DNA of 64,000 bases, from positions 344,499-408,498 of the forward strand of contig JAJFFT010000004.1 in NCBI GenBank assembly GCA_021776525.1, written 5' to 3'. The position numbers were made by a program, and so were the translations under genes. This document shows, in pieces, positions 2,110 to 18,641 of this stretch (position 1 is the stretch's first letter; each line of letters begins with the position of its first letter). The notes below the pieces were generated by a model. The model was not told where the DNA came from. It did no database searches and was given only the letters and a program-made list of their open reading frames with translations. The stretch comes from Robiginitomaculum sp. Lineage in GTDB: Bacteria > Pseudomonadota > Alphaproteobacteria > Caulobacterales > Maricaulaceae.

Positions 2110-2175
2110 GGGCAATGCACACCTTCCCCCCACAGTGAAGTGGTATGATTTGAAAAGACGGATCGGCACACAGGC

Positions 2176-2361: not shown

Positions 2362-2373
2362 GGGTGCTCCATT

Positions 2374-2396
2374 AAAAAAGCCCGCCAATGGCGGGC
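2374..2396 (-). terminator. rho-independent terminator (minus strand)
   Basis: On the minus strand a GCCCGCC-AUU-GGCGGGC hairpin is followed directly by UUUUUU (plus-strand A-run 2374-2379, stem 2380-2396). Confidence 0.6.
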
Positions 2397-2477: not shown

Positions 2478-2602
2478 TTTAGTCCGATAAAACAATAATA
2501 ATTTACTGTCAAGCGATAAATTGCTACTCTTGTAAGGAATACCTATCGTTTTGTGCGAAATTACGTTATACATTGTGCAACAAAATTGTGATGAGGTGTG
2601 AA

Positions 2603-2869: not shown

Positions 2870-3147
2870 ATGTGCGTTGGAGCGATGGCGCATTAGAGGA
2901 TTTAGAACGGCTTTATGATTTTATCGCGCTGCATAATGCGGATGCTGCGCAAAAAGCCATGCATACTATATTTGAAGCAGTTGCTTTATTAGGAAACTAT
3001 CCAGAAGCTGGTCGCATTCGCCCTTCCAATCGTCAGTTTCGGGAATTTGCTGTAAAGTTTGGTGCCCGCGGTTATATGGTACGGTATCGTATCCATGATG
3101 ATGTGGTCATCATCGTCCGTGTCTGGCACGTGCACGAAAACAGTTAG
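2866..3147 (+). CDS. RelE/ParE family toxin
   Basis: 93 aa. The pattern ALEDLERLYDFI...EAGR...REF.V...YMVRYRI.DDVVIIVRVWHV is typical of the ParE/RelE fold. It is translationally coupled to the upstream RHH gene. Confidence 0.85.
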   Translation: MNVRWSDGALEDLERLYDFIALHNADAAQKAMHTIFEAVALLGNYPEAGRIRPSNRQFREFAVKFGARGYMVRYRIHDDVVIIVRVWHVHENS

Positions 3148-3152
3148 GTTGT

Positions 3153-3602
3153 TTAATCCCTTGCCGCATCCAGCACTTCGCGCAGGCGCACTAAAAATGG
3201 CAAGGCATCAGCAAATTCCTCAACGCTAAAGGACGATAAAGCCTGCTGCATCACAGGGGTGATGGCCGCCAGTGCCCGCCCGTGCATGGCCACGCCCGCA
3301 TCGGTAATGCACACCTGTTTGCCGCGCCCGTCTTGTGGATCGGCGGTCATGCTGATCAGCCCGCGCGCCGACAGACGGCTCAACGTGTTGGTCATCGCCC
3401 CCTTGGTCACCTGAAAGGCGCGTGCCAATTCTGTTGGGCTTTGGGCCGTATCACGGCGCAAGAAATGGCTGAGCACCCCAAAATGTGCCATGCGCAGGCC
3501 ATCAGGCAGCGCCCGTTCCAATGCGTTCTGGCTCAGCTGGCTGATAATGCCAATTTCTGTAAAAACGGCAAAGGTGGGATCTGGGTCAGGGGGAATACTC
3601 AT
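3153..3602 (-). CDS. MarR family transcriptional regulator
   Basis: 149 aa with a winged-HTH signature (LSHFLRRDTAQSPTELARAFQVTKGAMTNTLSRLSARGLISMTADPQDGRGKQV). Its start overlaps the upstream gene's stop (ATGA at 3599-3602). Confidence 0.9.
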   Translation of the reverse strand: MSIPPDPDPTFAVFTEIGIISQLSQNALERALPDGLRMAHFGVLSHFLRRDTAQSPTELARAFQVTKGAMTNTLSRLSARGLISMTADPQDGRGKQVCITDAGVAMHGRALAAITPVMQQALSSFSVEEFADALPFLVRLREVLDAARD

Positions 3603-4735
3603 GCCTGTATTAATTTTGCCTCCAGGGGCCAGCGGGGGGCGGGCACCACGGGTTTAGCATAGCCGATCCGCGCAAACATTTGAATACGGGCACCGTCTTC
3701 TATGTCCAGTAAATGGTGGATCAGTCCCAGTGCTTCCTGCATTTCTACATACTCCTGCAAAGCCTGACTGAGCGGATGCATGGCAAGGCCATGGGCTGTG
3801 GCGTTTAGGTTGAGGCGTAAATAGGCGGCCCCGGCTTTGATCTGATCCAGGCGGGTGTTGGCTGGTGTATTGACCCAGACAAAGCCATGGGCGCTTTTGA
3901 TACCTCTGGCGTAGTCTTCACGTCCGGTGCGAAACATGGCCGAATCCATATCGGCAAGGTTCTTGCGCGTTAAAAAGCCCAATCGGTGCAAGGCCTCTTT
4001 CATGGGACCTTCCAGCGCAATGCCATCAGGAGTTTCGTTGTTCTCGCGCGCGCCAATACGCATGACATCCACGCTTTCCATATAGGTGCGCGGGGTATCA
4101 AACTCGATATTCGAGGCAATGACGGTAATGTCCTGTAAGCGGGCCACTGGTTCTGGCGCATTGGTGAAACCAGCCAAGATGCCCTCACCCAGATCGTGGG
4201 TAATGGCCTCTAGCGTCTGTGACGAGGGTACTTGTTCCGTGTAAAGGGTGCGGTTGGTGCGTCGGTTCAAAATATGCGCAAAATAGGGGGAGGGTATAGC
4301 CTGTTCCAACGGACTTAGGCGTAAGTGAGCCACAGGTCTGGCATCAAGTTTTTTATCGTCATAGCCATCAGGAAAAGCGGTGATGTCGGCCTTAAAGCCA
4401 AATTCCTGTGCGGCAATGCGGAACTGTTCCAGAAAACAGCCAAGGCCAATGGTGATTTGACGGCTATAAGGGTCTGTTTCTGGCAATAAACGATCAAGAT
4501 CACACATCAGTGTGGCTTGGGTTTCCGAGGTCAACTCAACCACCCATGGCTGTTTATTGTGGGGGTTTGGTGCCAGCAAAGCATAGGAAAGTGAGCGGCG
4601 CATAGGGTCGCTATAGCTATCGGTGGCGCGCCAGGGCAGGCGGGCGCTGTCTGCACCAGTGGAGCAGGCCGTGGCGGGCAAAATAATTGCTGAGCTGCCT
4701 GCAATTTTGAGAAAGTTACGCCGATTGACTGACAT
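3599..4735 (-). CDS. Tat-signal nitroreductase-superfamily (Acg-like) FMN oxidoreductase
   Basis: I chose the start at MSVNRRNFLKIAGSSAIILPATACS (twin-arginine motif, GGAGA Shine-Dalgarno upstream). The body contains LLAPNPHNKQPW and related motifs typical of two-domain nitroreductase-like proteins. Confidence 0.8.
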   Translation of the reverse strand: MSVNRRNFLKIAGSSAIILPATACSTGADSARLPWRATDSYSDPMRRSLSYALLAPNPHNKQPWVVELTSETQATLMCDLDRLLPETDPYSRQITIGLGCFLEQFRIAAQEFGFKADITAFPDGYDDKKLDARPVAHLRLSPLEQAIPSPYFAHILNRRTNRTLYTEQVPSSQTLEAITHDLGEGILAGFTNAPEPVARLQDITVIASNIEFDTPRTYMESVDVMRIGARENNETPDGIALEGPMKEALHRLGFLTRKNLADMDSAMFRTGREDYARGIKSAHGFVWVNTPANTRLDQIKAGAAYLRLNLNATAHGLAMHPLSQALQEYVEMQEALGLIHHLLDIEDGARIQMFARIGYAKPVVPAPRWPLEAKLIQA

Positions 4736-4775
4736 GAGGTCTCCATTCTTTGTGGGCCGGGGAGGGCATTTATAA

Positions 4776-4814
4776 TTCAACGTTAAACTAATAACATAAA
4801 GTTCAACGTTAAAC
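4776..4814. promoter_or_regulatory. two copies of TTCAACGTTAAAC (26-bp period), a candidate MarR operator
   Basis: Exact 13-mers lie at 4776-4788 and 4802-4814. Each is an imperfect palindrome around AACGTT. They sit 40-80 nt upstream of the nitroreductase-MarR operon start. Confidence 0.45.
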
Positions 4815-4869
4815 AATGCGTGTTCACAAGAAAATTGGCTGATGGTTAAAGGTCGGTATCTGGCTGTGC

Positions 4870-6459
4870 TCAGAGATAGGTGCTGGGGCAGTCCGGGTCG
4901 TCACGATAGCGGCAGGCATTGGCCAGATTTTCATCACAAAACGTGCACAGCGCCTTGGGGTGGGGCTGGGTGATGGTGTCGTTTTCGATGCGAAAACCCT
5001 GGGCGCGGAATTTTTTCAAAGTGCGTGAAAAAGTTTCCGGGGTCATGTCCAGATAAGAGGCGATCAGAGATTTGTCATAAGGCAGGCGAATTGCCGTTGT
5101 GTTTTCACTGCCTTCTTCAATACCCAGTTTTAACAAATACCAGCCGACGCGTTCCGATGCATTACGCAGACGCGAATGTTCGATCTGTTGGATCAAATGC
5201 TGTGAACGCATGGACAGACTGCCAATCATGTTCAGCGCAAAGGCATTGTTGTCTTGCAAAATCTGACGCACCACTGGTGCAGGCAGGGACAGAAGCGTGG
5301 CTTTTTCTACGACCTGGGCACTGGCCACCGAAGGAATGTTGAGCAAGATAGCGGCTTCCATGATGCTGTCACCGGCCGAAAGCATTTGCAAAACAGCCTC
5401 ATCGCCCGCATCAGAGCCTTTGAATAATTTTACCCATCCCGAAAGGATGAGATAGAAGCGTGATAATGGTTCAGACTGTAAAAACAGCAGTTTTCCCTTT
5501 TCGCACTCCTGGATCGTGGCGTGCGTCAGCAAAGATGTCAGTTCTTTCTCCTCCAGCTTTGAAAGCGCTGGCAAGGCCCGGATTAACGGCATGTGCCGTT
5601 CCAGGCTGGTGGAGAGGGTTGGGGGTTTGACCGCTCGCCTTTGAGGCTGGCTGAGGATAACAGGGGCGGCAACCAGTGTGTTGACCAGTTCGGCCTCGAC
5701 CAGTTTTAACCGTTCAATTTTTCCGGTCAGCAGCTCGAACCAGGTGATCGGGGAAATAGTTTCCAGCTCTTTGGCTCGCGCATCACTGGCCAGCATGTCA
5801 TGCAGGTCTTCGACAAACTGCATGACATAACCGGACGTCACCTTTTCAACCATTTCGCGTTGTGCAGGCGAGGCGAGTGACACAAAGGCGCGTTTATAGG
5901 CGCCCTGTTCATCAATCAGGGTCAGCATGCGTTCGGAAAATTCGCGATTCTTGAACACCTGGCTGCAAAACCCATGAGCGCCCCAGGCGCGTTCCCGGCC
6001 GACGCGCTCCTTCCACTGCAATAAATTGGCATAGGCCGTTGCCGCGGTCGGGGTCGCGCTGGTGACATGCAGGGCGATTTCAATCTGTGTGTCCAAGATC
6101 GGGCTGAGCGTCGTGTAGGTGTAGAAGTTGACGGCCCGTGCGAAAGATAACGCAAATTGATCAACACGGTGTCTGTGGGTGGACAAATCCTGAGCCGTGC
6201 CCAGTATTTCCAACACTTTTTGCAGCGTTGCCGCACCAATGCTAGTGGCCAGTTCCGGTGTGTTGCAAACCGTCTGCAAAGCCTCGGCGGCGGCGTTGGT
6301 CTCCAGACGTTGCTGGCGCAGCTCATCCGAGAAAATCTCACCATCGCTGTCGACAAAAAGTGCCGTGCAGCCGCGTTCCAATTGTAATTGGTGCGCCAGC
6401 CCGCCCAATTTCAGCAGCACAGAAATCGTGACAGGTCCGAGTGTGACATTGTTGTCCAT
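4870..6459 (-). CDS. Crp/Fnr-family regulator with an N-terminal NIT (nitrate/nitrite-sensing) domain and a C-terminal CX2CX7CX7C tail
   Basis: 529 aa from the ATG at 6459 (a TTG at 6480 is also possible). The N-terminal 260 aa or so carry NIT-like motifs (LQLERGCTALF, LLQWKERVGRERAWG, ITWFELLTGKIERLKLVE). A cNMP-binding-like barrel follows, then an HTH with the FNR-type ETFSR motif, then the Cys-rich tail LCTFCDENLANACRYRDDPDC. Confidence 0.85.
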   Translation of the reverse strand: MDNNVTLGPVTISVLLKLGGLAHQLQLERGCTALFVDSDGEIFSDELRQQRLETNAAAEALQTVCNTPELATSIGAATLQKVLEILGTAQDLSTHRHRVDQFALSFARAVNFYTYTTLSPILDTQIEIALHVTSATPTAATAYANLLQWKERVGRERAWGAHGFCSQVFKNREFSERMLTLIDEQGAYKRAFVSLASPAQREMVEKVTSGYVMQFVEDLHDMLASDARAKELETISPITWFELLTGKIERLKLVEAELVNTLVAAPVILSQPQRRAVKPPTLSTSLERHMPLIRALPALSKLEEKELTSLLTHATIQECEKGKLLFLQSEPLSRFYLILSGWVKLFKGSDAGDEAVLQMLSAGDSIMEAAILLNIPSVASAQVVEKATLLSLPAPVVRQILQDNNAFALNMIGSLSMRSQHLIQQIEHSRLRNASERVGWYLLKLGIEEGSENTTAIRLPYDKSLIASYLDMTPETFSRTLKKFRAQGFRIENDTITQPHPKALCTFCDENLANACRYRDDPDCPSTYL

Positions 6460-6579
6460 GATACTCGTGCGCCTTCCCAAAACTCAGTGGAGTTTAGACC
6501 ATGGTGAAACAGACTCAAACCATTAAACCCCGATCAATAGCAGATAATGCGGGAGCCATTTTGCTGCGTCCGGTAAAAC

Positions 6580-6593
6580 TTGATGTATGTCAA
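6580..6593. promoter_or_regulatory. FNR/FixK-type box TTGATgtatGTCAA in the divergent regulator/narK1 promoter region
   Basis: It matches the TTGAT-N4-ATCAA consensus at 9 of 10 positions. Its centre is about 80 nt upstream of the narK1 ATG and about 125 nt upstream of the regulator ATG. Confidence 0.55.
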
Positions 6594-6666
6594 ACCGGTC
6601 TTCCTTATTCGGGGCTACAAGGCGCACAAATCAGCAAGTCTTTTTGAGTTTTTTGGAGGGCGTACA

Positions 6667-8142
6667 ATGGAATTACAAAACAAAGCTACCAGTCTTTGGG
6701 GCGATTTTTTACGCGTTGATAAAGTACAAATCAGAACATTTCATGTGACATGGTTTGCATTCTTTTTATGTTTCTTTGCCTGGTTTGGCATTGCGCCGTT
6801 AATGGCCGTTGTTCGCGAAGAACTGTCGCTGACTAAGGAACAAATCGGGTGGACGATTATCGGGGCTGTTTCGGCAACGGTGTTCGCGCGAATACTCATT
6901 GGTTGGCTCTGTGACCATTATGGACCACGGCTCACCTATACATGGTTGCTGGTTCTGGCCTCTTTGCCGGTTATGGGCATTGGGCTGGCCCACGATTTCA
7001 CCACTTTCCTGATTTTCAGGATCTTAATCGGTGTCATCGGTGCCAGTTTTGTTATCACCCAATATCACACAACGAATATGTTTGCTCCAAATGTGGTTGG
7101 CCAGGCCAATGCGACCAGCGCCGGCTGGGGTAATCTGGGTGGCGGCGTGACCCAATTTGCCATGCCGATGATCTTTTCAATATTTGTTGTCGGCTTTGGT
7201 ACAACCGAGGCATTTGGCTGGCGGGCATCGATGGTGTTGGCCGGTGCAGTTATTCTGGTGACAGGTATCATCTATTATGTCTTCACACAGGATGCCCCTG
7301 ACGGCAGCTATAAAGAACTGCGCGCTCAAGGCAAAATGCCGGAAAGAAATAAATCAGCCGGCAACTTTTTTCATGCATTGAAAGATTATCGCGTCTGGAT
7401 GCTGTTTTTTATCTATGCCGCATGTTTTGGTATCGAACTGATCATCTTTGGCACTCTGGCCCTGTATTTCTTCGATTATTTTGGCCTCAATCTGGTCACC
7501 GCCGGTATGGTTGCCGCAAGCTTTGGTTTGATGAATATCTTTGCCCGGACACTGGGCGGCGTTTTTGGCGATAACTTCGCATCATTATGGGGCCTGAAAG
7601 GCCGTGCAACATGGCTGTTCATGACCTTGTTTGTTGAAGGTCTGGCCCTGATGCTGTTCTCGCAAATGAGCGTGCTATTCCTGGCCATTCCAACTTTGCT
7701 GTTCTTCTCATTGTTCACACAGATGTCAGAAGGCGCAACATTCTCGGTGGTTCCCTTTATTTCCAAGAGATCTCTGGGTGCGGTTGCCGGTGTTGTTGGT
7801 GCAGGCGGTAATGTCGGTGCTGTAGCCGCTGGTTTCCTGTTCAAGGGCGAGATGGATTGGCACACCTCATATCTCATTCTTGGGGCCTTGGTGACCTGTG
7901 CATCTTTCCTGGCATTGCTGATCCGCTTTAGCAAAGCCGACGAAATTGAAGCCGAGGAACGTTTTGACAGCGGCTTTACACGCCACAGAAAAGAAGCAGC
8001 ACGCAAACACCTCGAAGTGCTGGGTGTTGCCGATGAAGAGATTGACAAGATCAAAGTCTTTGGCAGCCGCGAAGCGCATGCGCTCAAACGGTTGGAGGCA
8101 CTGGGTGTGGATCTGAGCGATGTAAAGTTCAAACACAACTAG
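6667..8142 (+). CDS. narK: MFS nitrate/nitrite transporter (NarK1-type) with a 70-aa C-terminal extension
   Basis: 491 aa from an ATG preceded by GGAGG. It is a 12-TM MFS protein with NNP-family glycine-rich motifs (GWGNLGGG, GAGGNVGA). It lies directly upstream of narK2-narGHJI. Confidence 0.9.
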   Translation: MELQNKATSLWGDFLRVDKVQIRTFHVTWFAFFLCFFAWFGIAPLMAVVREELSLTKEQIGWTIIGAVSATVFARILIGWLCDHYGPRLTYTWLLVLASLPVMGIGLAHDFTTFLIFRILIGVIGASFVITQYHTTNMFAPNVVGQANATSAGWGNLGGGVTQFAMPMIFSIFVVGFGTTEAFGWRASMVLAGAVILVTGIIYYVFTQDAPDGSYKELRAQGKMPERNKSAGNFFHALKDYRVWMLFFIYAACFGIELIIFGTLALYFFDYFGLNLVTAGMVAASFGLMNIFARTLGGVFGDNFASLWGLKGRATWLFMTLFVEGLALMLFSQMSVLFLAIPTLLFFSLFTQMSEGATFSVVPFISKRSLGAVAGVVGAGGNVGAVAAGFLFKGEMDWHTSYLILGALVTCASFLALLIRFSKADEIEAEERFDSGFTRHRKEAARKHLEVLGVADEEIDKIKVFGSREAHALKRLEALGVDLSDVKFKHN

Positions 8143-8169
8143 AAAATGCCGCACAAGATAACGGAAAAA

Positions 8170-8195
8170 ACGGGGGTTTTGCCCCCGTTTTTTTG
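8170..8195 (+). terminator. rho-independent terminator after narK1
   Basis: An ACGGGGG-loop-CCCCCGT hairpin is followed by a run of 7 T. Confidence 0.75.
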
Positions 8196-8242
8196 TGCCT
8201 GTCCCATCTGATGGGCACACAAGATGTAAAAAAAGAGCATTT

Positions 8243-8256
8243 TTGACTTAGGTCAA
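8243..8256. promoter_or_regulatory. FNR/FixK-type box TTGACttagGTCAA upstream of narK2
   Basis: It is a perfect palindrome of the TTGA-N6-TCAA class. Its centre is about 97 nt upstream of the narK2 ATG and downstream of the narK1 terminator. Confidence 0.55.
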
Positions 8257-8345
8257 ACCGAATTTTGAAAAAGCTGGCACTTTGCGTTCAGCTGTTTGGG
8301 CGTTCGTCACTACGTCTGATCGTTTTCAAGAGAAGGAGCCAGGAT

Positions 8346-9953
8346 ATGGCTAAAGATCTTCAACAATGGAATCCGGAAGACGAAGCCGAATGGGCCTCGA
8401 CCGGTAAAGCCATTGCCAACCGAAATTTATGGATTTCCATTCCCGCGCTTTTGTGCGGGTTTGCTGTGTGGCTCTATTGGGGCATTATCACGGTGCAGAT
8501 GATCAATCTTGGTTATCCCTTTGCCAAGTCCGAGCTCTTTACCCTTGCCGCTATTGCGGGTCTGACCGGTGCAACATTGCGCATCCCCTCAACCTTCTTT
8601 ATCCGGCTGGCCGGTGGGCGTAACACCATCTTCTTCACCACCGCGCTTCTGATCCTGCCCGCCGCCGGCACAGGTTATTTGCTGCAAAACCCCGATACCC
8701 CGCTCTGGCAGTTCCAGCTGATGGCGCTCTTATCCGGTTTTGGCGGCGGTAACTTTGCCTCTTCAATGTCCAATATCAGCTTTTTCTTTCCTAAAAAAAT
8801 GGCGGGCTATTCGCTAGGTATGAATGCGGGCCTTGGCAATTTTGGTGTAACAACCATGCAAATCCTGGTGCCACTGGTGATGACCGCAGGCATTTTTGGC
8901 GGCGCGCCTATGGTGCTCAAAGCCACTTCAGGGACTTTGATCGGTAAAATTCCGGCCGGGACAGAAACCTATCTGCACAATGCCGGTTATATCTGGGTTG
9001 TCATCCTGATCCCGATCGTCATTGCCGCCTGGGTTGGTATGAACAATATCACCGCCAAGCACGTTTCACCCAATATTGGCTCACCCGCAGGTGCCTTTGC
9101 TAAAATCTCTGGCATGTTGCTGATTGGTTTTGCCACCTCGATCTTTGGTTTGTGGCTGATGCTGCCTGCCGGCGTTGGTGGGTCGGGCATGATGATCAGC
9201 AAATGGATTGTTTTACCGATCGTTATTGTGCTGACCGTGTTTGCACTGAAAATGATTCCAGGAGCGATCAAAGATAGCCTCAATCACCAATACAAAATCT
9301 TCAGCAACAAACACACTTGGGCGATGACGGTGATCTACACCATGACCTTTGGTTCTTTCATTGGTTACGCCGTGGCCTTTGGTCTTTCGATCAAAGTTGT
9401 ATTTGGCTTTCAACATGTGATGGTTGATGGGGTTATGACCCACAATTTGGCCAACCCTGATGGGCCAAGCGCCTTGATGTTTGCATGGACCGGGCCGTTC
9501 ATCGGTGCCCTGATCCGGCCTATCGGCGGCATGATTGCCGACAAAATGGGTGGTGCCAAAGTGACCCAAATCATTTCCGTGGTCATGGTCGGTGCCGCAC
9601 TGGGCGTCGCATATTATATGAAAGCGGCTTATGCCTCTGCTACTCCGCAGGATTATTTTGTGCCCTTCCTGGTACTGTTCCTGATCCTGTTTGCCGCCAC
9701 CGGCATTGGTAATGGCTCAACCTTTAGAACCATCGCTATGGTGTTCGATAAAGAACAGGCTGGGCCGGTTCTGGGGTGGACCTCTGCGGTTGCCGCATAC
9801 GGCGCCTTTATCATTCCCAAAGTGTTTGGCGAACAGATCAAAGCCACCACACCGGAATATGCGCTGTATGGTTTTGCTGCCTTTTATGCCCTGTGTATCT
9901 TGATCAACTGGTGGTTCTACCTTCGCAAAGACGCCTATGTGAAGAACCCATAA
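8346..9953 (+). CDS. narK: MFS nitrate/nitrite antiporter (NarK2-type)
   Basis: 535 aa from an ATG preceded by GGAG. It is a second, divergent NNP-family MFS protein (FGGGNFASSM, GIGNGSTFR motifs) immediately upstream of narG. Confidence 0.9.
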   Translation: MAKDLQQWNPEDEAEWASTGKAIANRNLWISIPALLCGFAVWLYWGIITVQMINLGYPFAKSELFTLAAIAGLTGATLRIPSTFFIRLAGGRNTIFFTTALLILPAAGTGYLLQNPDTPLWQFQLMALLSGFGGGNFASSMSNISFFFPKKMAGYSLGMNAGLGNFGVTTMQILVPLVMTAGIFGGAPMVLKATSGTLIGKIPAGTETYLHNAGYIWVVILIPIVIAAWVGMNNITAKHVSPNIGSPAGAFAKISGMLLIGFATSIFGLWLMLPAGVGGSGMMISKWIVLPIVIVLTVFALKMIPGAIKDSLNHQYKIFSNKHTWAMTVIYTMTFGSFIGYAVAFGLSIKVVFGFQHVMVDGVMTHNLANPDGPSALMFAWTGPFIGALIRPIGGMIADKMGGAKVTQIISVVMVGAALGVAYYMKAAYASATPQDYFVPFLVLFLILFAATGIGNGSTFRTIAMVFDKEQAGPVLGWTSAVAAYGAFIIPKVFGEQIKATTPEYALYGFAAFYALCILINWWFYLRKDAYVKNP

Positions 9954-9962
9954 AACCTCTGT

Positions 9963-9989
9963 CTGGCGGGCGTGAAATGCGCCCGCCAG
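9963..9989 (+). other. intercistronic GC-rich stem-loop between narK2 and narG
   Basis: A 10-bp perfect stem CTGGCGGGCG/CGCCCGCCAG encloses a 7-nt loop. No U-tract follows it. The 10-bp palindrome CTGATATCAG lies just downstream. Confidence 0.4.
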
Positions 9990-10034
9990 TCTTATCTGAT
10001 ATCAGCGAATACGAACTCTTAAGGACAAAGATCC

Positions 10035-13000
10035 ATGAGCAATTTTATCGACAGACTGACTTATTTTTCAAAAGTCGACGGCAAGTTTTCAAACGGTCAC
10101 GGTATTACCACGACCGAGGCCAGAGACTGGGAAAAAGCCTATCGTGGACGCTGGGCGCACGACAAAATTGTACGCTCCACCCATGGGGTGAATTGCACCG
10201 GCTCATGTAGTTGGAAGATCTATGTCAAAAACGGTCTGGTGACCTGGGAAACCCAACAAACCGACTATCCGCGTACCCGGCCCGACATGCCCAATCATGA
10301 ACCACGTGGTTGTTCGCGCGGGGCCAGTTATTCCTGGTATCTCTATTCTGCGGCGCGGTTGAAATTTCCGCTGATCCGTTCCCGCCTTTTGAAGCTTTAT
10401 CGCGAAGCCAAGGCCGAACTGGGTGATCCGGTTCTGGCCTGGGGCAGCATTGTTTCAGATCCCGCCAAAGCCAATGACTATAAAAAAATGCGCGGTCTGG
10501 GCGGGTTTGTACGCGCCAATTGGGACGAAGTGAACGAAATCACCGCTGCAGCTAATATCTACACCACCAAAACCTATGGCCCGGACCGGGTGTTTGGCTT
10601 CTCGCCAATCCCGGCTATGTCGATGGTGTCTTATGCTGCGGGCTCGCGTTATTTGTCGCTCATGGGCGGGGTCTGCCTCAGCTTTTATGACTGGTATTGC
10701 GATCTGCCTCCATCAAGCCCGCAAACCTGGGGCGAGCAAACCGACGTGCCCGAAAGCGCCGACTGGTTCAACTCCTCCTATATTATCGCCTGGGGTTCCA
10801 ACGTGCCGCAAACCCGCACCCCGGATGCCCATTTCTTCACCGAGGTGCGTTATAAAGGCACCAAGACCGTATCCGTCACCCCGGATTATTCCGAAGTCGC
10901 CAAGCTGACGGATATCTGGCTGAACCCGCGCCAAGGCACCGATGCGGCCATGGCCATGGCCATGGGGCACGTGGTGTTCAAGGAATTCCATCTGGGCAAC
11001 AAGTCCGAATACTTTACTGATTACGTCCGTAATTATTCCGACATGCCGATGCAGGTTTTGCTGGAGAAGAAGGGCGGCCATTACGTGCCGACTCGCAATC
11101 TGCGCGCCTCGGACTTTACGGGGGCTTTGAAGGTCAAAAATAATGCCGAATGGAAATCGGTTATTTTCGATGAAAGTTCGCAAAGCCACCGGGTGCCAAA
11201 CGGCACCATCGGTTCGCGCTGGGGCGAAGAAGGCAAATGGAATCTTGAGGCCAAGGATAACGCCACCGGCGAAGATATCTGGCCCAATTTGAGCAATATC
11301 GACAATCCTGACGAGGTACTGGACGTCGCCTTCCCATATTTTGGTAATCAGGAACACGAAAGCAAAATTTTTGCCCATACAGACCATGACAGCGTACAGG
11401 TCCGTAAACTTCCCGTCCGCAAGGTTTCACTAAAAGGCAAAAAAACCGCTTATGTGGCAACCGTGTATGATCTGATGGCCGCAAATTACGGTATTGATCG
11501 TGGCCTTGGCGGCGACAATGTCGCCACCGGCTTTGACGACAATGTGCCTTATACACCGGCATGGGCCGAGGCCATTACGGGCGTGTCGGCTGATAAAATT
11601 ATTCAGGTGGCCCGCGAATTTGCGCAAAATGCCGACAAGACCCGTGGCCGCTCGATGGTCATTCTGGGCGCTGCGATCAATCACTGGTACCATATGGATA
11701 TGACCTATCGGGGGATTATGAATCTTCTGATGATGTGCGGGTGTATCGGTAAATCCGGTGGTGGCTGGGCGCACTATGTTGGGCAGGAAAAATTGCGCCC
11801 GCAAACCGGCTGGTTGCCATTGGCCTTTGGGCTGGATTGGAACCGTCCGCCACGGCAAATGAACTCGACCTCGTTCTTCTATAACCATTCCAACCAATGG
11901 CGTTATGAAAAACTGGGCGTTGATGAAATTCTTTCGCCGCTTGCCGATGCAGACAAATGGAAAAACCATTCATTGATTGACTGCAATGTACGCTCGGAAC
12001 GTATGGGCTGGTTACCATCAGCGCCGCAATTGGACGAAAATCCGCTGGGGCTGGCCGCCAAGGCCGCTGCGGCAGGTCAATCCACCAAGGATTATGTCAC
12101 CGCACAGCTGAAAGCGGGCGATCTGCAATTTGCAGCCGAAGACCCGGACAAAGAGGATAATTTCCCGCGCAACCTGTTTGTTTGGCGCTCTAACATTCTG
12201 GGCTCATCCGGCAAGGGGCACGAATACATGCTGCGCCATTTGCTGGGTGCTCAGAACGGTGTGATGAGCGACGATCTGGACGAAATGGGGGCTGAAAAAC
12301 CCGCCGAAGTGAAGTGGCACAAGGACGCACCCGAAGGCAAACTTGACCTGGTGGTGACGCTTGATTTTCGTATGTCGACCACGGCGGTTTATTCGGACAT
12401 CGTTATGCCGACCGCCACATGGTACGAAAAGAACGACCTGAACACCTCGGATATGCACCCCTTTATTCACCCGCTATCGCGCGCCGTGGACCCGGCCTGG
12501 GAAAGCCGCTCGGATTGGGACATTTTCAAAGGTCTGGCCCGTAAGTTCTCGGAAATCTGCCCCGGTCATCTGGGTGTTGAAACCGATCTGGTGACCGTGC
12601 CGATCTTGCACGACACCCCCGGAGAGCTGGGACAGGCGCTGGGCGTTTCTGACTGGAAAAAAGGCGAATGTGACCCGGTGCCCGGTAAATCCATGCCAAA
12701 CCTTGTCGAGGTAGAGCGCGATTACCCCAACCTTTACAAGAAGTTCACATCCCTGGGTCCACTTTTGTCTAAACTGGGCAATGGCGGCAAGGGTATTGGC
12801 TGGAATACCGAATCCGAGGTCGAACTGCTGGGTAAGCTCAATAAAACAGTACGCGAGGAAGGCGTTTCACACGGCCAGCCGCGTATCGAAAGCGACATTG
12901 ATGCAACCGAGGTGATCTTGTCTCTGGCCCCTGAAACCAATGGTCAGGTGGCGGTCAAAGCCTGGGCCGCCTTGTCCAAAATGACCGGACGGGATCATAC

Positions 13001-13826
13001 CCATCTGGCCCGGCCCAAAGAGGACGAGAAAATCCGCTTTCGGGATATTCAGGCCCAGCCGCGCAAGATCATTTCTTCGCCAACATGGTCTGGCCTTGAG
13101 GATGAGCATGTCAGCTATAATGCCTGTTATACCAATGTGCACGAGCTGATCCCGTGGCGCACGTTGACGGGGCGCCAGCACTTCTATCAGGATCATGAAT
13201 GGATGCGTGATTTCGGTGAAGGTTTGTGTGTTTACAAACCCCCGATCTCGACCCGCACCATCACCAATTCGGTGAAATCTCGCGGTGGTGATGCCAAACA
13301 GATCACGCTGAACTGGATCACCCCGCACCAGAAATGGGGGATCCACTCGACCTATTCGGACAACCTTTTGCTGCTCACCATGAACAGGGGCGGACCGGTG
13401 GTCTGGCTCTCGGAAACTGATGCACGCAAAGTGGACGTGGCCGATAATGACTGGATCGAGCTTTATAACGTCAATGGCGCCATCACCGCCCGTGCGGTGG
13501 TTAGCCAACGTGTGCCCGAAGGCATGTGCATGATGTATCATGCCCAGGAAAAGACCATGAATACCCCAGGCAGCCGCATTACCGGCAAGCGCGGCGGCAT
13601 TCATAATTCGGTCACCCGCGCGGTGGTCAAACCCACTCATATGATCGGCGGCTATGCGCAGCTTTCTTATGGCTTCAATTATTACGGCACCGTTGGGTCA
13701 AACCGTGATGAGTTTGTCATCTTGCGTAAAACCAACACGGTGGACTGGATGGAAGAACCATACGTCGAAGGCCAACCCATCAATACGCCAAAAGTTTCGC
13801 CTGCAGACAAGGAGGCAGCCCAATGA
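10035..13826 (+). CDS. narG: respiratory nitrate reductase alpha subunit
   Basis: 1263 aa. It has the N-terminal vestigial Tat-like segment, the FS0 ligand motif HGVNCTGSCSW (H-x3-C-x3-C), and molybdopterin oxidoreductase domains throughout. Confidence 0.98.
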   Translation: MSNFIDRLTYFSKVDGKFSNGHGITTTEARDWEKAYRGRWAHDKIVRSTHGVNCTGSCSWKIYVKNGLVTWETQQTDYPRTRPDMPNHEPRGCSRGASYSWYLYSAARLKFPLIRSRLLKLYREAKAELGDPVLAWGSIVSDPAKANDYKKMRGLGGFVRANWDEVNEITAAANIYTTKTYGPDRVFGFSPIPAMSMVSYAAGSRYLSLMGGVCLSFYDWYCDLPPSSPQTWGEQTDVPESADWFNSSYIIAWGSNVPQTRTPDAHFFTEVRYKGTKTVSVTPDYSEVAKLTDIWLNPRQGTDAAMAMAMGHVVFKEFHLGNKSEYFTDYVRNYSDMPMQVLLEKKGGHYVPTRNLRASDFTGALKVKNNAEWKSVIFDESSQSHRVPNGTIGSRWGEEGKWNLEAKDNATGEDIWPNLSNIDNPDEVLDVAFPYFGNQEHESKIFAHTDHDSVQVRKLPVRKVSLKGKKTAYVATVYDLMAANYGIDRGLGGDNVATGFDDNVPYTPAWAEAITGVSADKIIQVAREFAQNADKTRGRSMVILGAAINHWYHMDMTYRGIMNLLMMCGCIGKSGGGWAHYVGQEKLRPQTGWLPLAFGLDWNRPPRQMNSTSFFYNHSNQWRYEKLGVDEILSPLADADKWKNHSLIDCNVRSERMGWLPSAPQLDENPLGLAAKAAAAGQSTKDYVTAQLKAGDLQFAAEDPDKEDNFPRNLFVWRSNILGSSGKGHEYMLRHLLGAQNGVMSDDLDEMGAEKPAEVKWHKDAPEGKLDLVVTLDFRMSTTAVYSDIVMPTATWYEKNDLNTSDMHPFIHPLSRAVDPAWESRSDWDIFKGLARKFSEICPGHLGVETDLVTVPILHDTPGELGQALGVSDWKKGECDPVPGKSMPNLVEVERDYPNLYKKFTSLGPLLSKLGNGGKGIGWNTESEVELLGKLNKTVREEGVSHGQPRIESDIDATEVILSLAPETNGQVAVKAWAALSKMTGRDHTHLARPKEDEKIRFRDIQAQPRKIISSPTWSGLEDEHVSYNACYTNVHELIPWRTLTGRQHFYQDHEWMRDFGEGLCVYKPPISTRTITNSVKSRGGDAKQITLNWITPHQKWGIHSTYSDNLLLLTMNRGGPVVWLSETDARKVDVADNDWIELYNVNGAITARAVVSQRVPEGMCMMYHAQEKTMNTPGSRITGKRGGIHNSVTRAVVKPTHMIGGYAQLSYGFNYYGTVGSNRDEFVILRKTNTVDWMEEPYVEGQPINTPKVSPADKEAAQ

Positions 13827-15391
13827 CTATTCGTGCACAAATCGGCATGGTCCTGAATTTGGACAAATGCATTGGCTGTCACACCTGTTCCATCACCTGT
13901 AAAAACGTGTGGACCAGCCGCGGCGGCGTTGAATACGCTTGGTTCAACAATGTGGAAAGCAAGCCCGGTGTTGGTTATCCGCGCAATTGGGAAGACCAGT
14001 CTGAGTGGAAAGGCGGATGGGAGCTGAACAAGGCCGGTAAGTTGAAGCCAAAAATCGGTGGCAAACTCGGGGTTCTCTCCAACATTTTTGCCAATCCCGA
14101 CCTGCCTTTGATCGACGATTATTACGAGCCATTTACCTATGAGTATGACCATCTGAAAACTGCCAAGGAGAGCAAAGCGGTTCCCACGGCGCGGATGAAA
14201 TCGGCGATTACCGGCAAGTTCAAGGAAAAACCGGATTGGGGCGTCAACTGGGAGGAGATCCTGGGCGGTGAATTCGAAAAACGCTCGAAAGACTATAATT
14301 TCGACAAAATTCAAAAAGATATTTACGGCGAGTTTGAAAATACATTCATGATGTATTTGCCGCGTCTGTGCGAACATTGTCTGAACCCATCGTGTGTGGC
14401 CTCATGTCCCTCTGGCGCGATCTATAAGCGCGAGGAAGATGGTATTGTTCTGATCGATCAGGATAAGTGCCGGGGCTGGCGTATGTGTGTTTCGGGCTGC
14501 CCTTACAAGAAAATTTACTTCAATTGGCAGTCTGGTAAATCTGAAAAATGTACCTTCTGTTATCCTCGTATCGAGGCCGGCGAGCCAACCGTGTGTTCGG
14601 AAACCTGTGTCGGGCGTATTCGGTATCTGGGCGTGCTTTTGTATGATTCAGACAAGATCGAGGAAGCTGCATCAGCCAAGGAAGAAACAGATCTCTATCA
14701 AAGCCAGTGTGATCTCTTTTTGGACCCTCATGATCCCGAGGTGATCAAACAGGCGCTGGCCGATGGCGTGCCGCAAAGCTGGATTGACGGGGCGCAAAAT
14801 TCGCCGGTCTATAAAATGGCGATGGAATGGAAGATTGCCTTCCCGCTGCACCCTGAATATCGCACGCTGCCTATGGTTTGGTATGTGCCGCCGCTTTCGC
14901 CGATTCAATCGGCGGCCGAGGCCGGCCATCTGGACCAGAACGGCATGTTGCCCGATGTGCGCCAATTGCGCATCCCGACAAAATATCTGGCCAATTTGCT
15001 GACAGCAGGGGATGAAGAACCAGTGATCAGCGCGTTGGAACGGATGATGGCTATGCGGCTTTATATGCGCGGCAAAACCGTTGACGGGGTCGAAGATCCC
15101 GCCGTTCTGGAACAGGTCGGCATGTCAGAGGACGACATGAATGACATGTACCAGTTGATGGCGATTGCCAATTACGAGGACCGTTTTGTCATTCCGACCA
15201 ATCACCGCGAATACGCCGGTGATGGGCCGTTTGATCAGGAAATTGCCTTCTCGGCACGCTCTGAATGCGGCTTCTCTTTTGGTAATGGTTGTAATACGGG
15301 GGCGAAGAAAAAAACCAATCTCTTTGGTACCCAGACCCATAACAATACGCTTAGCGGGACACCGCGCAAAGGTCCGGGAGGCCAGTCATGA
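13823..15391 (+). CDS. narH: respiratory nitrate reductase beta subunit
   Basis: 522 aa with four Fe-S Cys groups (CIGCHTCSITC, CEHCLNPSCVASCP, CRGWRMCVSGCP, CTFCYPRIEAGEPTVCSETC). It overlaps narG by 4 nt. Confidence 0.98.
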   Translation: MTIRAQIGMVLNLDKCIGCHTCSITCKNVWTSRGGVEYAWFNNVESKPGVGYPRNWEDQSEWKGGWELNKAGKLKPKIGGKLGVLSNIFANPDLPLIDDYYEPFTYEYDHLKTAKESKAVPTARMKSAITGKFKEKPDWGVNWEEILGGEFEKRSKDYNFDKIQKDIYGEFENTFMMYLPRLCEHCLNPSCVASCPSGAIYKREEDGIVLIDQDKCRGWRMCVSGCPYKKIYFNWQSGKSEKCTFCYPRIEAGEPTVCSETCVGRIRYLGVLLYDSDKIEEAASAKEETDLYQSQCDLFLDPHDPEVIKQALADGVPQSWIDGAQNSPVYKMAMEWKIAFPLHPEYRTLPMVWYVPPLSPIQSAAEAGHLDQNGMLPDVRQLRIPTKYLANLLTAGDEEPVISALERMMAMRLYMRGKTVDGVEDPAVLEQVGMSEDDMNDMYQLMAIANYEDRFVIPTNHREYAGDGPFDQEIAFSARSECGFSFGNGCNTGAKKKTNLFGTQTHNNTLSGTPRKGPGGQS

Positions 15392-16053
15392 GAAGCTTTC
15401 GTGTTTTATCACATTTGCTGACCTATCCACAGGCTGACTGGGTCGGCCATATGGATGAGTTAAAAGAGGCCATTACAGACGAAGGTCTGGTCAAGGGCAA
15501 AACTTTGAAAAACCTGCTTGCCTTTATGGACGAGCTGGCCACCACAGACTTGATGGAAGCGCAAGAAAGCTATGTCGAGCTGTTTGACCGGGGGCGGGCA
15601 CATTGCCTGCATCTGTTCGAACATGTGCATGGCGAATCGCGGTTTCGTGGTCAGGCGATGATCGAACTGGCCGATAAGTATCAGGAAAAAGGGCTGCAAA
15701 TCGGCACCGGAGAATTGCCGGATTATTTGCCTTTGTTTTTGGAATTTATCTCTATTTGTGAGCCAGAAGAGGGCCTTGAAACTCTGGGGCAGGCCGCACC
15801 GGTGATTGCCACGATTGGCGAGAAACTGAAACGCGGTAAATCCGGTTATGCCTCTGTCATGACTGCCATTGTTGCGCTGTCGGGCGTAAAACTTAGCAAG
15901 GCAGAACTGGAAAAGGCGGCTGATGCAGCCTTGCCCGACATCCAAACACTGGACGAACTGGACGAGCAATGGAAGGAGCCCGAAGCCTTTACCGGGGCGC
16001 CCGATTGCGGCACCTGTGAAACTGGCGAAACCCCCACACTGGGAGCATTATAA
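15388..16053 (+). CDS. narJ: nitrate reductase molybdenum cofactor assembly chaperone
   Basis: 221 aa, NarJ/TorD-like (YVELFDRGRAHCLHLFEHVHGESR). It is translationally coupled on both sides. Confidence 0.9.
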   Translation: MRSFRVLSHLLTYPQADWVGHMDELKEAITDEGLVKGKTLKNLLAFMDELATTDLMEAQESYVELFDRGRAHCLHLFEHVHGESRFRGQAMIELADKYQEKGLQIGTGELPDYLPLFLEFISICEPEEGLETLGQAAPVIATIGEKLKRGKSGYASVMTAIVALSGVKLSKAELEKAADAALPDIQTLDELDEQWKEPEAFTGAPDCGTCETGETPTLGAL

Positions 16054-16736
16054 TGGCCGAATATATGAACACCTTTTTCTTTGGCATATATCCTTATATT
16101 GCCATTTTGACGATGATCGTCGGCTCGGTCCTGCGCTATGATCAAGACCCTTATTCTTGGAAAGCAGACAGCTCACAGTTGTTACACCGCAAGGGTTTGC
16201 GTGTGGGGAGTAATCTTTTCCACGTCGGCATTTTGTTGCTCTTTGCAGGTCATTTTGTTGGCCTTTTAACGCCGCACTGGGCTTATGAGCCGTTTATCAC
16301 AGCTGGTCAGAAACAAATTCTGGCGATGACGGCGGGCGGTATTTTTGGCTCTATGGCCTTTATCGGTATGACCATATTGATCTGGCGACGGACCACACAA
16401 GACCGGGTGCGGGCCACCACCAAATTTATGGATATGGCCATTTTGCTGATCCTCTTTGTGCAATTGGTGCTGGGTCTTTTAACAATTCCACAAAGCGCCA
16501 AGCACCTGGATGGCTCATCCATGATTGCTTTGGCCGAATGGGCACAGCATATCGTCACCTTTAGAGGCGGCGCCGCAGAGTTCATTACCGAAGAGGCGCT
16601 GGTCTTCAAACTGCACATTGTGCTGGGCCTGACCATCTTCCTCATCTTCCCATTCACGCGACTGGTGCACATGGTCAGTGCACCGTACAAATATATCTTG
16701 CGCTCTGGCTACCAGATCGTCCGCAAACGCGGCTAA
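16053..16736 (+). CDS. narI: respiratory nitrate reductase gamma subunit (dihaem cytochrome b)
   Basis: 227 aa with 5 predicted TM helices and the conserved His residues in helices II and V (FHVGILLLFAGHF; RLVHMVSAP). Confidence 0.95.
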   Translation: MAEYMNTFFFGIYPYIAILTMIVGSVLRYDQDPYSWKADSSQLLHRKGLRVGSNLFHVGILLLFAGHFVGLLTPHWAYEPFITAGQKQILAMTAGGIFGSMAFIGMTILIWRRTTQDRVRATTKFMDMAILLILFVQLVLGLLTIPQSAKHLDGSSMIALAEWAQHIVTFRGGAAEFITEEALVFKLHIVLGLTIFLIFPFTRLVHMVSAPYKYILRSGYQIVRKRG

Positions 16737-16762
16737 GATGTGTGCGAAAACCATCTGGAAGA

Positions 16763-16787
16763 GGGGAGCCATTGGCTCCCCTTTTTT
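16763..16787 (+). terminator. rho-independent terminator after narI
   Basis: A GGGGAGCC-att-GGCTCCCC hairpin is followed by TTTTTT. Confidence 0.8.
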
Positions 16788-16825
16788 GTGTGTTCCATAG
16801 GCTGCGACCTTTTGTCCACGAGGGT

Positions 16826-16839
16826 TTGATCTGAATCAA
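16826..16839. promoter_or_regulatory. perfect FNR consensus box TTGATctgaATCAA upstream of the porin gene
   Basis: It matches TTGAT-N4-ATCAA at 10 of 10 positions. A -10-like TAAAAT lies at 16862-16867, which puts the box centre near -41.5 (class II geometry). The porin ATG is at 16903. Confidence 0.7.
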
Positions 16840-16902
16840 ATTTTCGTGAGCCATGGATGGATAAAATGTGCGCAATATCCATTCACACACAGGAATTTAG
16901 TT

Positions 16903-18153
16903 ATGCGCACCCCTCTTAAATCTGGTCTTTTTGCCAGCATTGCATCACTCGCATTGATCGCGGCGGCTTCTCCGTCTCTTGCTGAAGAGGCTAATTCATT
17001 GTCAGAGGCCTTCACCTTGGGCAAGGCTAGCCTGACTTTTCGTTACCGTGCCGAAGATGTTGACCAAACAGGCTTTGCGCAAAATGCGTTTGCGTCGACA
17101 CTGCGTACGCGCTTGAAGCTCTCAACGGCCGTTTTCAAAGGCTTTTCCGGGGTTCTGGAATTTGACAATGTGTCAAATATCGGCGCGACGGCCTTTAATG
17201 ATACGATCAATGGCAAAGCTCGCTTTCCAGTGATTGCCGATCCGGAAATCACCGAAGTTAATCAGGCCTATCTAGCTTATACCGGGTTTGATAAAACCAC
17301 TATGCTGGCTGGCCGCGTAGCACTGAATATGAATAATCAGCGCTTTGTAGGCACTGTGGGCTGGCGCCAGAATGACCAGACCTGGGACATGACAGGCATT
17401 ATCAATTCCTCTATCCCTGACCTGACTTTGACCGCCGGGTATGTGTGGAATGTCAATCGTATTTTTGGTAATGATCACCCGTTTGGTGATCTGGATACCA
17501 ACACCTTAATTCTGGATGCAAAATACACTGGTCTGCCGATTGGCAATGTTACGGCTTATGGTCTGATCATTGATCTGAACGATGCGCCGGTTTACGGCCT
17601 GTCCAGCAAAACCTTCGGGGTACGTTTTGACGGCAAATACAAGGCTGAAGGCAGCAATCTGACATTCTTGTATGAAGCCGAGTTTGCAAACCAGACAGAC
17701 AATGCCAGTAATCCAACCAATTACAGCGCAGATTATATCCATCTTTCCGCCGGCCTTTCCGCCAGTGGTCTAACCGGTAAAATCGGGTTTGAAAAACTGG
17801 GCTCGGATAATGGCGGCACTGTTGCCTTCCAGACACCTTTGGCAACCTTGCACAAGTTTAACGGCTGGGCCGATAAATTTTTGGGTACACCGGCCGGTGG
17901 TTTGGAAGACTTCTATGGCAGCCTGTCCTACAAAGTTCAGGGTGATGGGCCAATGAAGGGCTTGAAGTTCGATGTCATTTATCACGACTTCTCGGCCGCA
18001 ATTGGTGGTTCATACGGCGAAGAAATTGACCTGCAAATTTCTAAAAAAATCAGCAAGCACTATTATGCGGGCCTGAAATTTGCCGATTACAATGCCAAAG
18101 GCTTCGCCACAGACACACAGAAAATCTGGTTTACGGTCGGCGCAAACTTCTAA
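16903..18153 (+). CDS. outer-membrane beta-barrel porin, alginate-export (AlgE)-like family
   Basis: 416 aa from MRTPLK, with a signal peptide ending SLAEE. It has alternating beta-strand patterns, the motif GRVALNMNNQRFVGTVGWRQNDQTWD typical of the AlgE-like family, and a C-terminal aromatic residue (VGANF). Confidence 0.8.
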   Translation: MRTPLKSGLFASIASLALIAAASPSLAEEANSLSEAFTLGKASLTFRYRAEDVDQTGFAQNAFASTLRTRLKLSTAVFKGFSGVLEFDNVSNIGATAFNDTINGKARFPVIADPEITEVNQAYLAYTGFDKTTMLAGRVALNMNNQRFVGTVGWRQNDQTWDMTGIINSSIPDLTLTAGYVWNVNRIFGNDHPFGDLDTNTLILDAKYTGLPIGNVTAYGLIIDLNDAPVYGLSSKTFGVRFDGKYKAEGSNLTFLYEAEFANQTDNASNPTNYSADYIHLSAGLSASGLTGKIGFEKLGSDNGGTVAFQTPLATLHKFNGWADKFLGTPAGGLEDFYGSLSYKVQGDGPMKGLKFDVIYHDFSAAIGGSYGEEIDLQISKKISKHYYAGLKFADYNAKGFATDTQKIWFTVGANF

Positions 18154-18179: not shown

Positions 18180-18207
18180 GGGAGCGCCTTTCGGGCGCTC
18201 CCTTTTT
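18180..18207 (+). terminator. rho-independent terminator after the porin gene
   Basis: A GGGAGCGCC-loop-GGCGCTCCC hairpin is followed by TTTTT. Confidence 0.8.
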
Positions 18208-18218
18208 ATTATGGGTGG

Positions 18219-18641
18219 TCAAAAGGCTTCGCTTATCCTCTCCAGCATTTCGGCCAGCTTGCTCATGTCCTCTGGCGATATTTGGGCATCCAGAACATCG
18301 TTTATGGCGGCAAATGGCTGGGCAATGTTGGCAAAGGCCTGCCTGCCGGCCAGTGTCATGTCCAACTGCCAGGCCCGCCCGTCATCGGGACAGCGCGTGC
18401 GGGTGATATAATCCAGTTTGATCAGGCGTTTGGCCATGGCGGTGACCGCAGATTCGTTAATGCCCAATTGTTTGGCAATGTGTTTTTGGGTGACAGAACC
18501 ATCCGCATTGATGACGGCCATGACCGCGGCTTGTGCCGTTGTTATATTGGCCGCGCCCAGCAAGCTGCGGTCAGCGGCCTTGTTCACCGCATGAGCAGCA
18601 CGTTGCAGTTTGGAATATAGCCTGTGGTGTGATGCGCTCAT
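18219..18641 (-). CDS. MarR family transcriptional regulator
   Basis: 140 aa with a winged HTH (ITTAQAAVMAVINADGSVTQKHIAKQLGINESAVTAMAKRLIKLDYITRTRCPDDGRA). It is divergent from the amidohydrolase gene. The 10-bp palindrome TCACTAGTGA at 18689-18698 lies in the shared spacer. Confidence 0.9.
   Translation of the reverse strand: MSASHHRLYSKLQRAAHAVNKAADRSLLGAANITTAQAAVMAVINADGSVTQKHIAKQLGINESAVTAMAKRLIKLDYITRTRCPDDGRAWQLDMTLAGRQAFANIAQPFAAINDVLDAQISPEDMSKLAEMLERISEAF

Follow-up and report, generated by a model that had tools for sequence, protein, structure and literature searches.

The subject here is a 64,000-nt stretch of the genome of Robiginitomaculum sp. (Alphaproteobacteria; assembly GCA_021776525.1, contig JAJFFT010000004.1, positions 344,499 to 408,498), called the window below, and in it a gene for an outer-membrane beta-barrel protein found directly 3' of the respiratory nitrate reductase genes narGHJI. 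This protein, referred to as the porin, probably lets nitrate into the cell through the outer membrane, as judged from the genes that accompany it in this and other genomes. The locus starts with a regulator gene and two narK genes and ends with the porin gene. Its features, in positions of the window, are as follows.

4870-6459, minus strand: gene for a Crp/Fnr regulator with a NIT domain (NIT-Crp/Fnr; Pfam NIT 2.3e-39, cNMP_binding 1e-15, HTH_Crp_2 4e-11)
6580-6593: FNR-type box TTGATGTATGTCAA, between the regulator gene and narK1
6667-8142, plus strand: narK1, MFS nitrate/nitrite transporter (Pfam MFS_1 8e-32); GGAGG precedes the ATG at 6667
8243-8256: FNR-type box TTGACTTAGGTCAA, upstream of narK2
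8265-9953, plus strand: narK2, MFS transporter (Pfam MFS_1; position from the list of open reading frames)
10035-16736, plus strand: narG (10035-13826), narH (13823-15391), narJ (15388-16053), and narI (16053-16736), by Pfam
16763-16787, plus strand: intrinsic terminator of narI, GGGGAGCC-AUU-GGCUCCCC and then U6, with the hairpin at 16763-16781
16826-16839: perfect FNR/FixK-type palindrome TTGATCTGAATCAA (TTGAT-N4-ATCAA), read from the sequence
16862-16867, plus strand: -10 element TAAAAT, which starts 22 nt after the TTGATCTGAATCAA box
16892-16896, plus strand: ribosome-binding site AGGAA, 6 nt 5' of the ATG
16903-18153, plus strand: porin gene (416 aa, 27-residue signal peptide, C-terminal Phe; from the translation and an AlphaFold2 model)
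18180-18210, plus strand: intrinsic terminator of the porin gene, with a hairpin at 18180-18202 (10-bp stem, 8 GC pairs) and then TTTTT

The products of narGHJI match the Pfam families Molybdopterin, Nitr_red_alph_N, Fer4_11, Nitr_red_bet_C, Nitrate_red_del, and Nitrate_red_gam. The narI terminator went undetected in a consensus terminator scan and was confirmed by folding (dG -24.7 kcal/mol, z -5.5, 0 of 200 shuffles as good). The centre of the TTGATCTGAATCAA box is at 16832.5, which corresponds to about -41.5 assuming that transcription starts near 16874. For the porin gene, the open reading frame finder gives GTG at 16846 as an alternative start. This GTG is upstream of the -10 element, and the alignments with orthologues begin at residues 1-5, so the ATG at 16903 is taken as the start. 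Flanked by two intrinsic terminators, the porin gene forms a monocistronic unit. A preliminary description of this DNA, made from its letters alone, had located the box, the TAAAAT element, and the narI terminator, and direct reading finds all of these coordinates correct. It had also presented the porin gene as a separate unit under an FNR-type box appended to narGHJI, which agrees with the gene having its own -10 element, ribosome-binding site, and terminator. The secreted barrel that it had described is confirmed by the translation, the Sec signal peptide, and the 18-strand model.

The association between the porin gene and the nar genes is conserved. Among 101 genomes of the same family, NarI is found in 23, and in 20 of these 23 the porin gene is on the same contig within 7 kb. 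Of the remaining three, two have both genes at contig ends, consistent with contig breaks, and in one genome (89% complete) the porin was not found. Co-occurrence with nar in relatives had been named in advance as a check in the preliminary description, and the outcome is strongly positive. For a wider view, 100 loci were collected: the 80 best loci from species-representative genomes and 20 loci from genomes of the class sample that have no Nar. Nar genes exist within 10 kb of the porin gene in 47 of the 80 best loci. There are at least four arrangements of the porin and nar genes, in several orders (after narI, before narK, divergent, convergent). The porin gene is directly 3' of narI in Robiginitomaculaceae, Hyphomonadaceae, and Parvularculaceae, and separated from narI by one gene in Kordiimonadaceae. 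In Sphingomonadales it exists 5' of narK on the same strand, and in Porticoccaceae and other Pseudomonadales it is convergent with narI. Divergence from narK is a further arrangement among the best 80 loci. Linkage is seen in Maricaulales, Kordiimonadaceae, Emcibacteraceae, Sphingomonadales, and Porticoccaceae/Pseudomonadales. That the linkage has outlasted repeated rearrangement points to function as its cause more than to inheritance.

Five of the loci without nar genes within 10 kb were checked, and NarH is present in all five genomes, about 17 kb from the porin gene in three of them. Two of these three loci were annotated. In both, nrdD-nrdG and ubiT/U/V-type genes intervene, and one adds crp and moeA. 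These two loci (L086 on a Micavibrio chromosome, 350-11266, and L087, 1023-11260) look like an "anaerobic island" of ubiT/U/V-like genes (SCP2 and two Peptidase_U32), nrdD-nrdG, and the porin gene. The island that includes crp and moeA is that of L086, with nar about 17 kb off; in L087 riboflavin genes separate nrdG from the porin gene.

The linkage was also counted in two broader samples. In 401 Alphaproteobacteria, the porin is found in 49 genomes, NarI in 67, and both in 14 (plus one genome with a weak NarI match only); about 10 of the 14 have the two genes within 15 kb. In 401 Pseudomonadota (the phylum sample), the porin is found in 32 genomes, NarI in 52, and both in 14, with 10 of the 14 within 13 kb. 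The chance that two random genes are no more than 15 kb apart in a 3-Mb genome is calculated as about 1%, a figure to be read with the fact that relatives are not independent. One genome outside Alphaproteobacteria (L108) has the order narX-narL-box-porin, divergent from narK-narGH. Directly 3' of narX-narL-porin in this genome, at 16393-17220, is a gene for a protein of 276 aa. Two sensor domains of the PilJ/NarX type make up this protein, which lacks a kinase part and may bind nitrate as a free module in the periplasm.

The box upstream of the porin gene is conserved as well. Of the 100 loci, all from other genomes, 61 have a sequence of the form TTGA[TC]-N4-[AG]TCA[AG] within 200 nt 5' of the porin gene; by our calculation, about 0.15 loci of 100 are expected by chance. 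The perfect form TTGAT-N4-ATCAA is found in 22 of the first 80 loci, 78 of which could be scored. The preliminary description had proposed class II spacing from the -10 element, and the orthologous promoters agree: TAnnnT hexamers peak at 21-22 nt after the box, a distance seen in 20 of the 61 box-bearing loci. In ten loci of Kordiimonadaceae (L023-L029, L033, L041, and L042) the box is TTGAT-N4-ATCAG, with the last base of one arm altered; the gene between narI and the porin gene in these loci is about 1.3 kb long.

In the window, TTGATCTGAATCAA is the sole perfect TTGAT-N4-ATCAA. The whole genome of 2.96 Mb has 12 perfect boxes, versus none for a reversed control pattern. Since most of the 12 are intragenic and probably occur by chance, one perfect box alone is weak evidence, and the weight lies on the conservation of the box among orthologues. 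Only the boxes of the porin gene and moaA are promoter-like, and possibly one at C7:16054. The moaA box, TTGATCCAGATCAA, is at 890684-890697 of contig 4, about 150 nt 5' of the gene (Radical_SAM and Mob_synth_C), so molybdenum-cofactor synthesis is apparently in one regulon with nar and the porin. Another box, TTGACCTATGTCAA (contig 1, 135685-135698), is found about 64 nt 5' of nirS, which encodes cytochrome cd1 nitrite reductase (E 2.7e-153). The presence of nirS indicates that the organism denitrifies at least to nitric oxide (NO). Boxes of the same type thus precede narK1, narK2, moaA, and nirS in this genome.

Crp/Fnr proteins number only two in this genome, and neither is a classical FNR with a Cys cluster at the N-terminus. 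One is a protein of 213 aa with the helix EAVNR and no Cys cluster. The other is the product of the minus-strand gene at 4870-6459, a protein of 528 aa with NIT, cNMP_binding, and HTH_Crp_2 domains, the recognition helix ETFSR (E--SR), and a C-terminal tail with four Cys (CX2CX7CX7C). NIT-Crp/Fnr, whose gene opens the nar locus, is the likely activator at the FNR-type boxes and might combine signals of nitrate and of oxygen. The preliminary description had spoken of an FNR box. The palindrome is indeed perfect; classical FNR is improbable as its regulator, as the genome encodes none. The promoter resembles the class II promoters of denitrification genes that are controlled by FNR, ANR, FixK, or NarR, in which TTGAT-N4-ATCAA is centred near -41.5. 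It differs from them in its candidate activator, the NIT-Crp/Fnr protein with the four-Cys tail. From the box and this protein, we infer both the acting regulator and the anaerobic induction of the porin promoter.

The porin has a Sec signal peptide, MRTPLKSGLFASIASLALIAAASPSLA|EE, with cleavage after SLA at residue 27. By sequence it is a member of an uncharacterised family of porins. The preliminary description had seen alginate-export motifs, and the motif GRVALNMNNQRFVGTVGWRQNDQTWD is present at residues 137-162; the family signal is weak. In the proposed check with the hidden Markov model Alginate_exp (PF13372), the porin failed, scoring 17.7 bits (E 0.0017, residues 95-164 only) against a gathering cut-off of 25.2. 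More distant orthologues, with 55-65% identity, pass the PF13372 threshold in precomputed tables and have the label "alginate export family", which puts the wider clade at the edge of Alginate_exp; this porin itself does not qualify. It has no match to Pfam OprD and so is not a member of that family, and it is far below threshold for the NCBIfam model "Opr family porin" (NF033923; 29.7 bits, cut-off 150). Neither phmmer with the porin nor a profile of 51 sequences gave a usable sequence match in searches of all PDB chains, and no AlgE match was obtained by either at E up to 10.

The fold can be placed more readily. An alignment of 51 orthologue sequences served for the profile, for the AlphaFold2 model, and for the conservation scores. 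The model has 18 beta strands, a predicted local distance difference test score (pLDDT) of 80.8, and a predicted template-modelling score of 0.79. The best Foldseek matches in PDB are OccAB2-4 of A. baumannii, OccK/OccD of P. aeruginosa, the major outer membrane protein (MOMP) of C. jejuni, and chitoporin (E 1e-15 to 1e-12). Chains of AlgE appear at rank 38 or lower (E 1e-11, template-modelling (TM) score ~0.6). According to the model, the porin is a monomeric 18-strand barrel of the OprD/AlgE fold class and not specifically AlgE-like. The earlier argument that an AlgE-type barrel is hence anion-selective does not hold: there is no sequence match to AlgE, and the fold matches to Occ, MOMP, and chitoporin are equal or better.

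Conservation along the alignment is highest in the extracellular loops L3 (mean identity 0.88, with the motif NMNNQRFVGTVGWRQNDQ), L4 (0.87), and L7 (0.87), and lowest in the periplasmic turns (0.38-0.64). General porins have the reverse pattern. In Occ channels, L3 and L7 fold inward and form the constriction. By analogy, conserved L3, L4, and L7 would be the pattern of a specific channel with inward-folding loops, not that of a general porin. Conserved basic residues are found on strands 1, 2, 5, 10, 17, and 18 and in L3 and L7, and conserved acidic residues on the opposite wall.

Other genomes link relatives of the porin to the import of nitrate and cyanate. The neighbours of the 20 porin loci from Nar-less genomes were scanned, and four of these loci are import clusters for nitrogen oxyanions. 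One has the order nasT (ANTAR response regulator)-nasS (NMT1_2)-porin-nrtA-nrtB-nrtCD (L105), and another porin-nrtA-nrtA-nrtB (L102). In a third (L100), the porin gene is followed by a gene for a chemoreceptor with a NIT domain and by nrtA-nrtB. The fourth (L103, 4119-9221, genome G402) consists of cynA-cynB-cynD-cyanase (cynS) and then the porin gene; here the porin is possibly the outer-membrane route for cyanate. A gene for cytochrome cd1 (NirS-type) is a neighbour in one of the 20 loci. A chemoreceptor gene adjoins the porin gene in six of the 20 (L088, L090, L094, L096, L098, and L100), encoding proteins of about 650-800 aa, and a NIT domain is recognisable only in that of L100. The large periplasmic domains of the other five have no Pfam match except a 4HB_MCP_1 module in L088. 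They could be unrecognised nitrate sensors.

In a quick maximum-likelihood tree, in which only starred branches were given weight, the porins linked to nrt or cyn group outside the large group that contains all nar-linked members, with weak support for the split (73). No FNR-type box was found at the nrt- and cyn-linked porins, and the nar-linked members have the box. This suggests that some branches of the family are tied to respiratory pathways and others to assimilatory ones, that the solute is of one kind in both, and that the regulation fits each pathway. From the two kinds of context it would follow that the solute is nitrate/nitrite (cyanate in one branch); no other argument speaks as strongly against a channel for anything small under anoxia. 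A Nar-bearing genome of the phylum sample outside Alphaproteobacteria has the order narGHJI-ppiC-HPP/CBS-porin-NasR (NIT-ANTAR)-nirC-kinase-porin2 (L109, 8574-17688), an unusually dense cluster for nitrate/nitrite transport. The HPP-CBS membrane-protein family includes nitrite transporters, and the kinase is a fusion of PP2C and a Ser/Thr kinase.

On balance, the comparative genomics makes it rather probable that the porin is a nitrate/nitrite-specific outer-membrane channel induced under anoxia. The links to nitrate and cyanate import in Nar-less genomes lend further support to a channel of nitrogen oxyanions. The transported solute is thus deduced from the company that the gene keeps. In the proposed mechanism, NIT-Crp/Fnr or the second Crp-family protein of the genome would bind the TTGAT-N4-ATCAA box under anoxia in the presence of nitrate, and the porin gene would be activated jointly with narK1, narK2GHJI, moaA, and nirS. 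The porin in the outer membrane would raise its permeability to nitrate, which NarK would then take in for the cytoplasmic NarGHI. Nitrite would go back to the periplasm to be consumed by NirS. As the genome has NirS, nitrate would be the substrate needed from outside; the channel may also pass nitrite. The conserved extracellular loops L3, L4, and L7 would fold into the barrel and narrow it to a substrate-selective constriction, like that of OprD/Occ-type channels. For the family as a whole, the chances appear evenly balanced that it is a widespread family of channels specific for nitrate, nitrite, and cyanate (~1,200 clusters at E<=1e-30), with subgroups recruited to respiratory (FNR/NarXL) and assimilatory (NasST/NasR) pathways. 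Clustered at 50% identity, the family comprises 3,031 clusters at E<=1e-3 and 1,207 clusters at E<=1e-30.

Several findings weigh against a nitrate-specific channel. In the phylum sample, 38 of the 52 NarI genomes have no porin homologue and 18 of the 32 porin genomes have no NarI, so the porin is neither required for nor restricted to nitrate respiration. The relative in the cyanate cluster indicates that specificity may be broader, for small nitrogen oxyanions. In the two loci where the porin gene is among general anaerobic genes (nrdDG, ubiTUV), its role could be one that is not nitrate-specific. The pLDDT of the model is below 50 at 148-157 (L3) and 312-320 (part of L7), and because the model is poor exactly there, the inward folding of L3 and L7 is presumed. 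A crude count by strand parity gives 7 basic versus 13 acidic conserved residues in the lumen, which is not net positive; as no electropositive lumen emerges from it, anion selectivity is not readable from the sequence and the count was not used.

Some of these findings would suit a general-purpose porin of the anaerobic regulon, comparable to OprE/OccK8 of P. aeruginosa or OmpW of E. coli, that alters the permeability to small solutes at low oxygen without specificity for nitrate. Proximity to nar would then come only from the clustering of anaerobic genes and a common regulator. It would account for the FNR-type box being kept where nar is not adjacent, for the two loci, L086 with crp and moeA and L087, in which nrdDG and ubiTUV-type genes precede the porin gene, and for the porin genomes without NarI. 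It does not account for the box-less relatives within clusters for nitrate assimilation and cyanate uptake, which are not anaerobic functions. The linkage to nar holds across at least four gene arrangements, Nar is present in all five "unlinked" genomes that were tested, and the loops expected to fold inward are the conserved parts, as they are in specific channels. A general-purpose porin is thus unlikely. The solute may instead be a different oxyanion that the pathway requires, with molybdate, needed for the molybdenum cofactor of Nar and Nas, as the foremost candidate. In this genome moaA has the same perfect box, and moeA is near the porin gene in L086. Since Nar and the assimilatory nitrate reductase both depend on molybdenum, either kind of context would fit. 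A molybdate channel is nevertheless very improbable: no modABC was seen beside the porin gene in the annotated loci, the cynABDS cluster and the NIT chemoreceptor are contexts without a link to molybdenum, and the neighbours NrtA, NasS, NirC, and HPP all handle nitrate or nitrite.

The channel could also serve the products of the pathway, letting nitrite out or giving passage to NO-related species. Exchangers of the NarK2 type bring nitrite to the periplasm, and in L109 the porin gene adjoins genes of two nitrite transporter families (NirC and HPP). Against this, NirS is periplasmic here, so that nitrite need not exit the cell, and the contexts with nrtABC and nasST are import systems. NO and nitrous oxide traverse membranes without a channel. 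Taken together, these points make a product-side role quite improbable. The name of the Pfam family would suggest an exporter of an acidic polysaccharide. The porin is like AlgE of P. aeruginosa in being an 18-strand barrel, and Alginate_exp, a model built around AlgE, is the only Pfam family that touches it, if below threshold; its orthologues at 55-65% identity carry the alginate export label. It is unlike AlgE in its surroundings: the gene adjoins narI and a MarR gene, no partners of the alg8/alg44/algK/algX type exist at the loci examined, and no genes for polysaccharide synthesis or export are found among the neighbours there. With no match to AlgE in sequence even by profile, and AlgE only at rank 38 by fold, an exporter is hardly credible. 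Many "alginate export family protein" labels are then probably misnomers.

A nitrate-specific porin would be OprD/Occ-like in architecture and OprP-like in logic, an anion channel co-regulated with an uptake system. The OprD/Occ channels (OccD/OccK of P. aeruginosa, OccAB1-4 of A. baumannii) rank first among the fold matches (E 1e-15 to 1e-12, TM 0.63-0.76). They are likewise monomeric 18-strand barrels, and the conserved L3 and L7 of the porin correspond to the Occ constriction loops. They differ in sequence, with an identity of 12-16%, no Pfam OprD match, and NF033923 below threshold. Occ channels import organic compounds that bear carboxylates, whereas the context of the porin points to inorganic nitrogen oxyanions. 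One Occ member, OprE/OccK8, is anaerobically induced. The closest functional analogy is OprP/OprO of P. aeruginosa, outer-membrane channels specific for an inorganic oxyanion. Their substrates are phosphate and pyrophosphate; they are induced along with the uptake system for the substrate and are of use when it is scarce. OprP differs in being a trimeric 16-strand channel of the Porin_O_P family regulated by PhoB, and it has no sequence or fold match to the porin.

In textbook accounts, denitrification and nitrate assimilation start at the inner membrane with NarK and NrtABC, and passage through the outer membrane is assumed to occur via general porins. To our knowledge, no protein has so far been assigned to the outer-membrane step of bacterial nitrate uptake. 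Marine Alphaproteobacteria reportedly lack classical general porins, as is stated for Caulobacter. A dedicated, co-regulated nitrate channel would be an added component in both denitrification and nitrate assimilation. It could explain how marine Alphaproteobacteria scavenge micromolar nitrate, and it would set the nitrate affinity of denitrifiers and assimilators in low-nitrate waters. The gene would also be a new marker for nitrate use in metagenomes. What would be new is a substrate-specific outer-membrane channel with a new class of substrate and anaerobic control. The family is readily testable: it is a single gene, several carriers are in culture, such as Robiginitomaculum antarcticum, Kordiimonas lacus, K. 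lipolytica, K. sediminis, and Sphingorhabdus, and bilayer assays of the kind used for OprP are standard.

A literature search found no paper that assigns nitrate transport to this porin family or to a related porin. In a transposon fitness study of P. stutzeri RCH2, Psest_3489, a "hypothetical protein" of the nar cluster, shows a fitness defect under nitrate respiration (PMC5554334). Psest_3489 would be a candidate homologue of the porin at most, and its position differs from the gammaproteobacterial narX-narL-porin arrangement.

On the 3' side of the porin gene, a gene for a MarR-family regulator (18219-18641, minus strand) is convergent with the porin terminator, and amidohydrolase and esterase genes come next. 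No connection is seen between these genes and the nitrate genes. On the 5' side of narGHJI, the real start of narK2 is probably downstream of the listed TTG.

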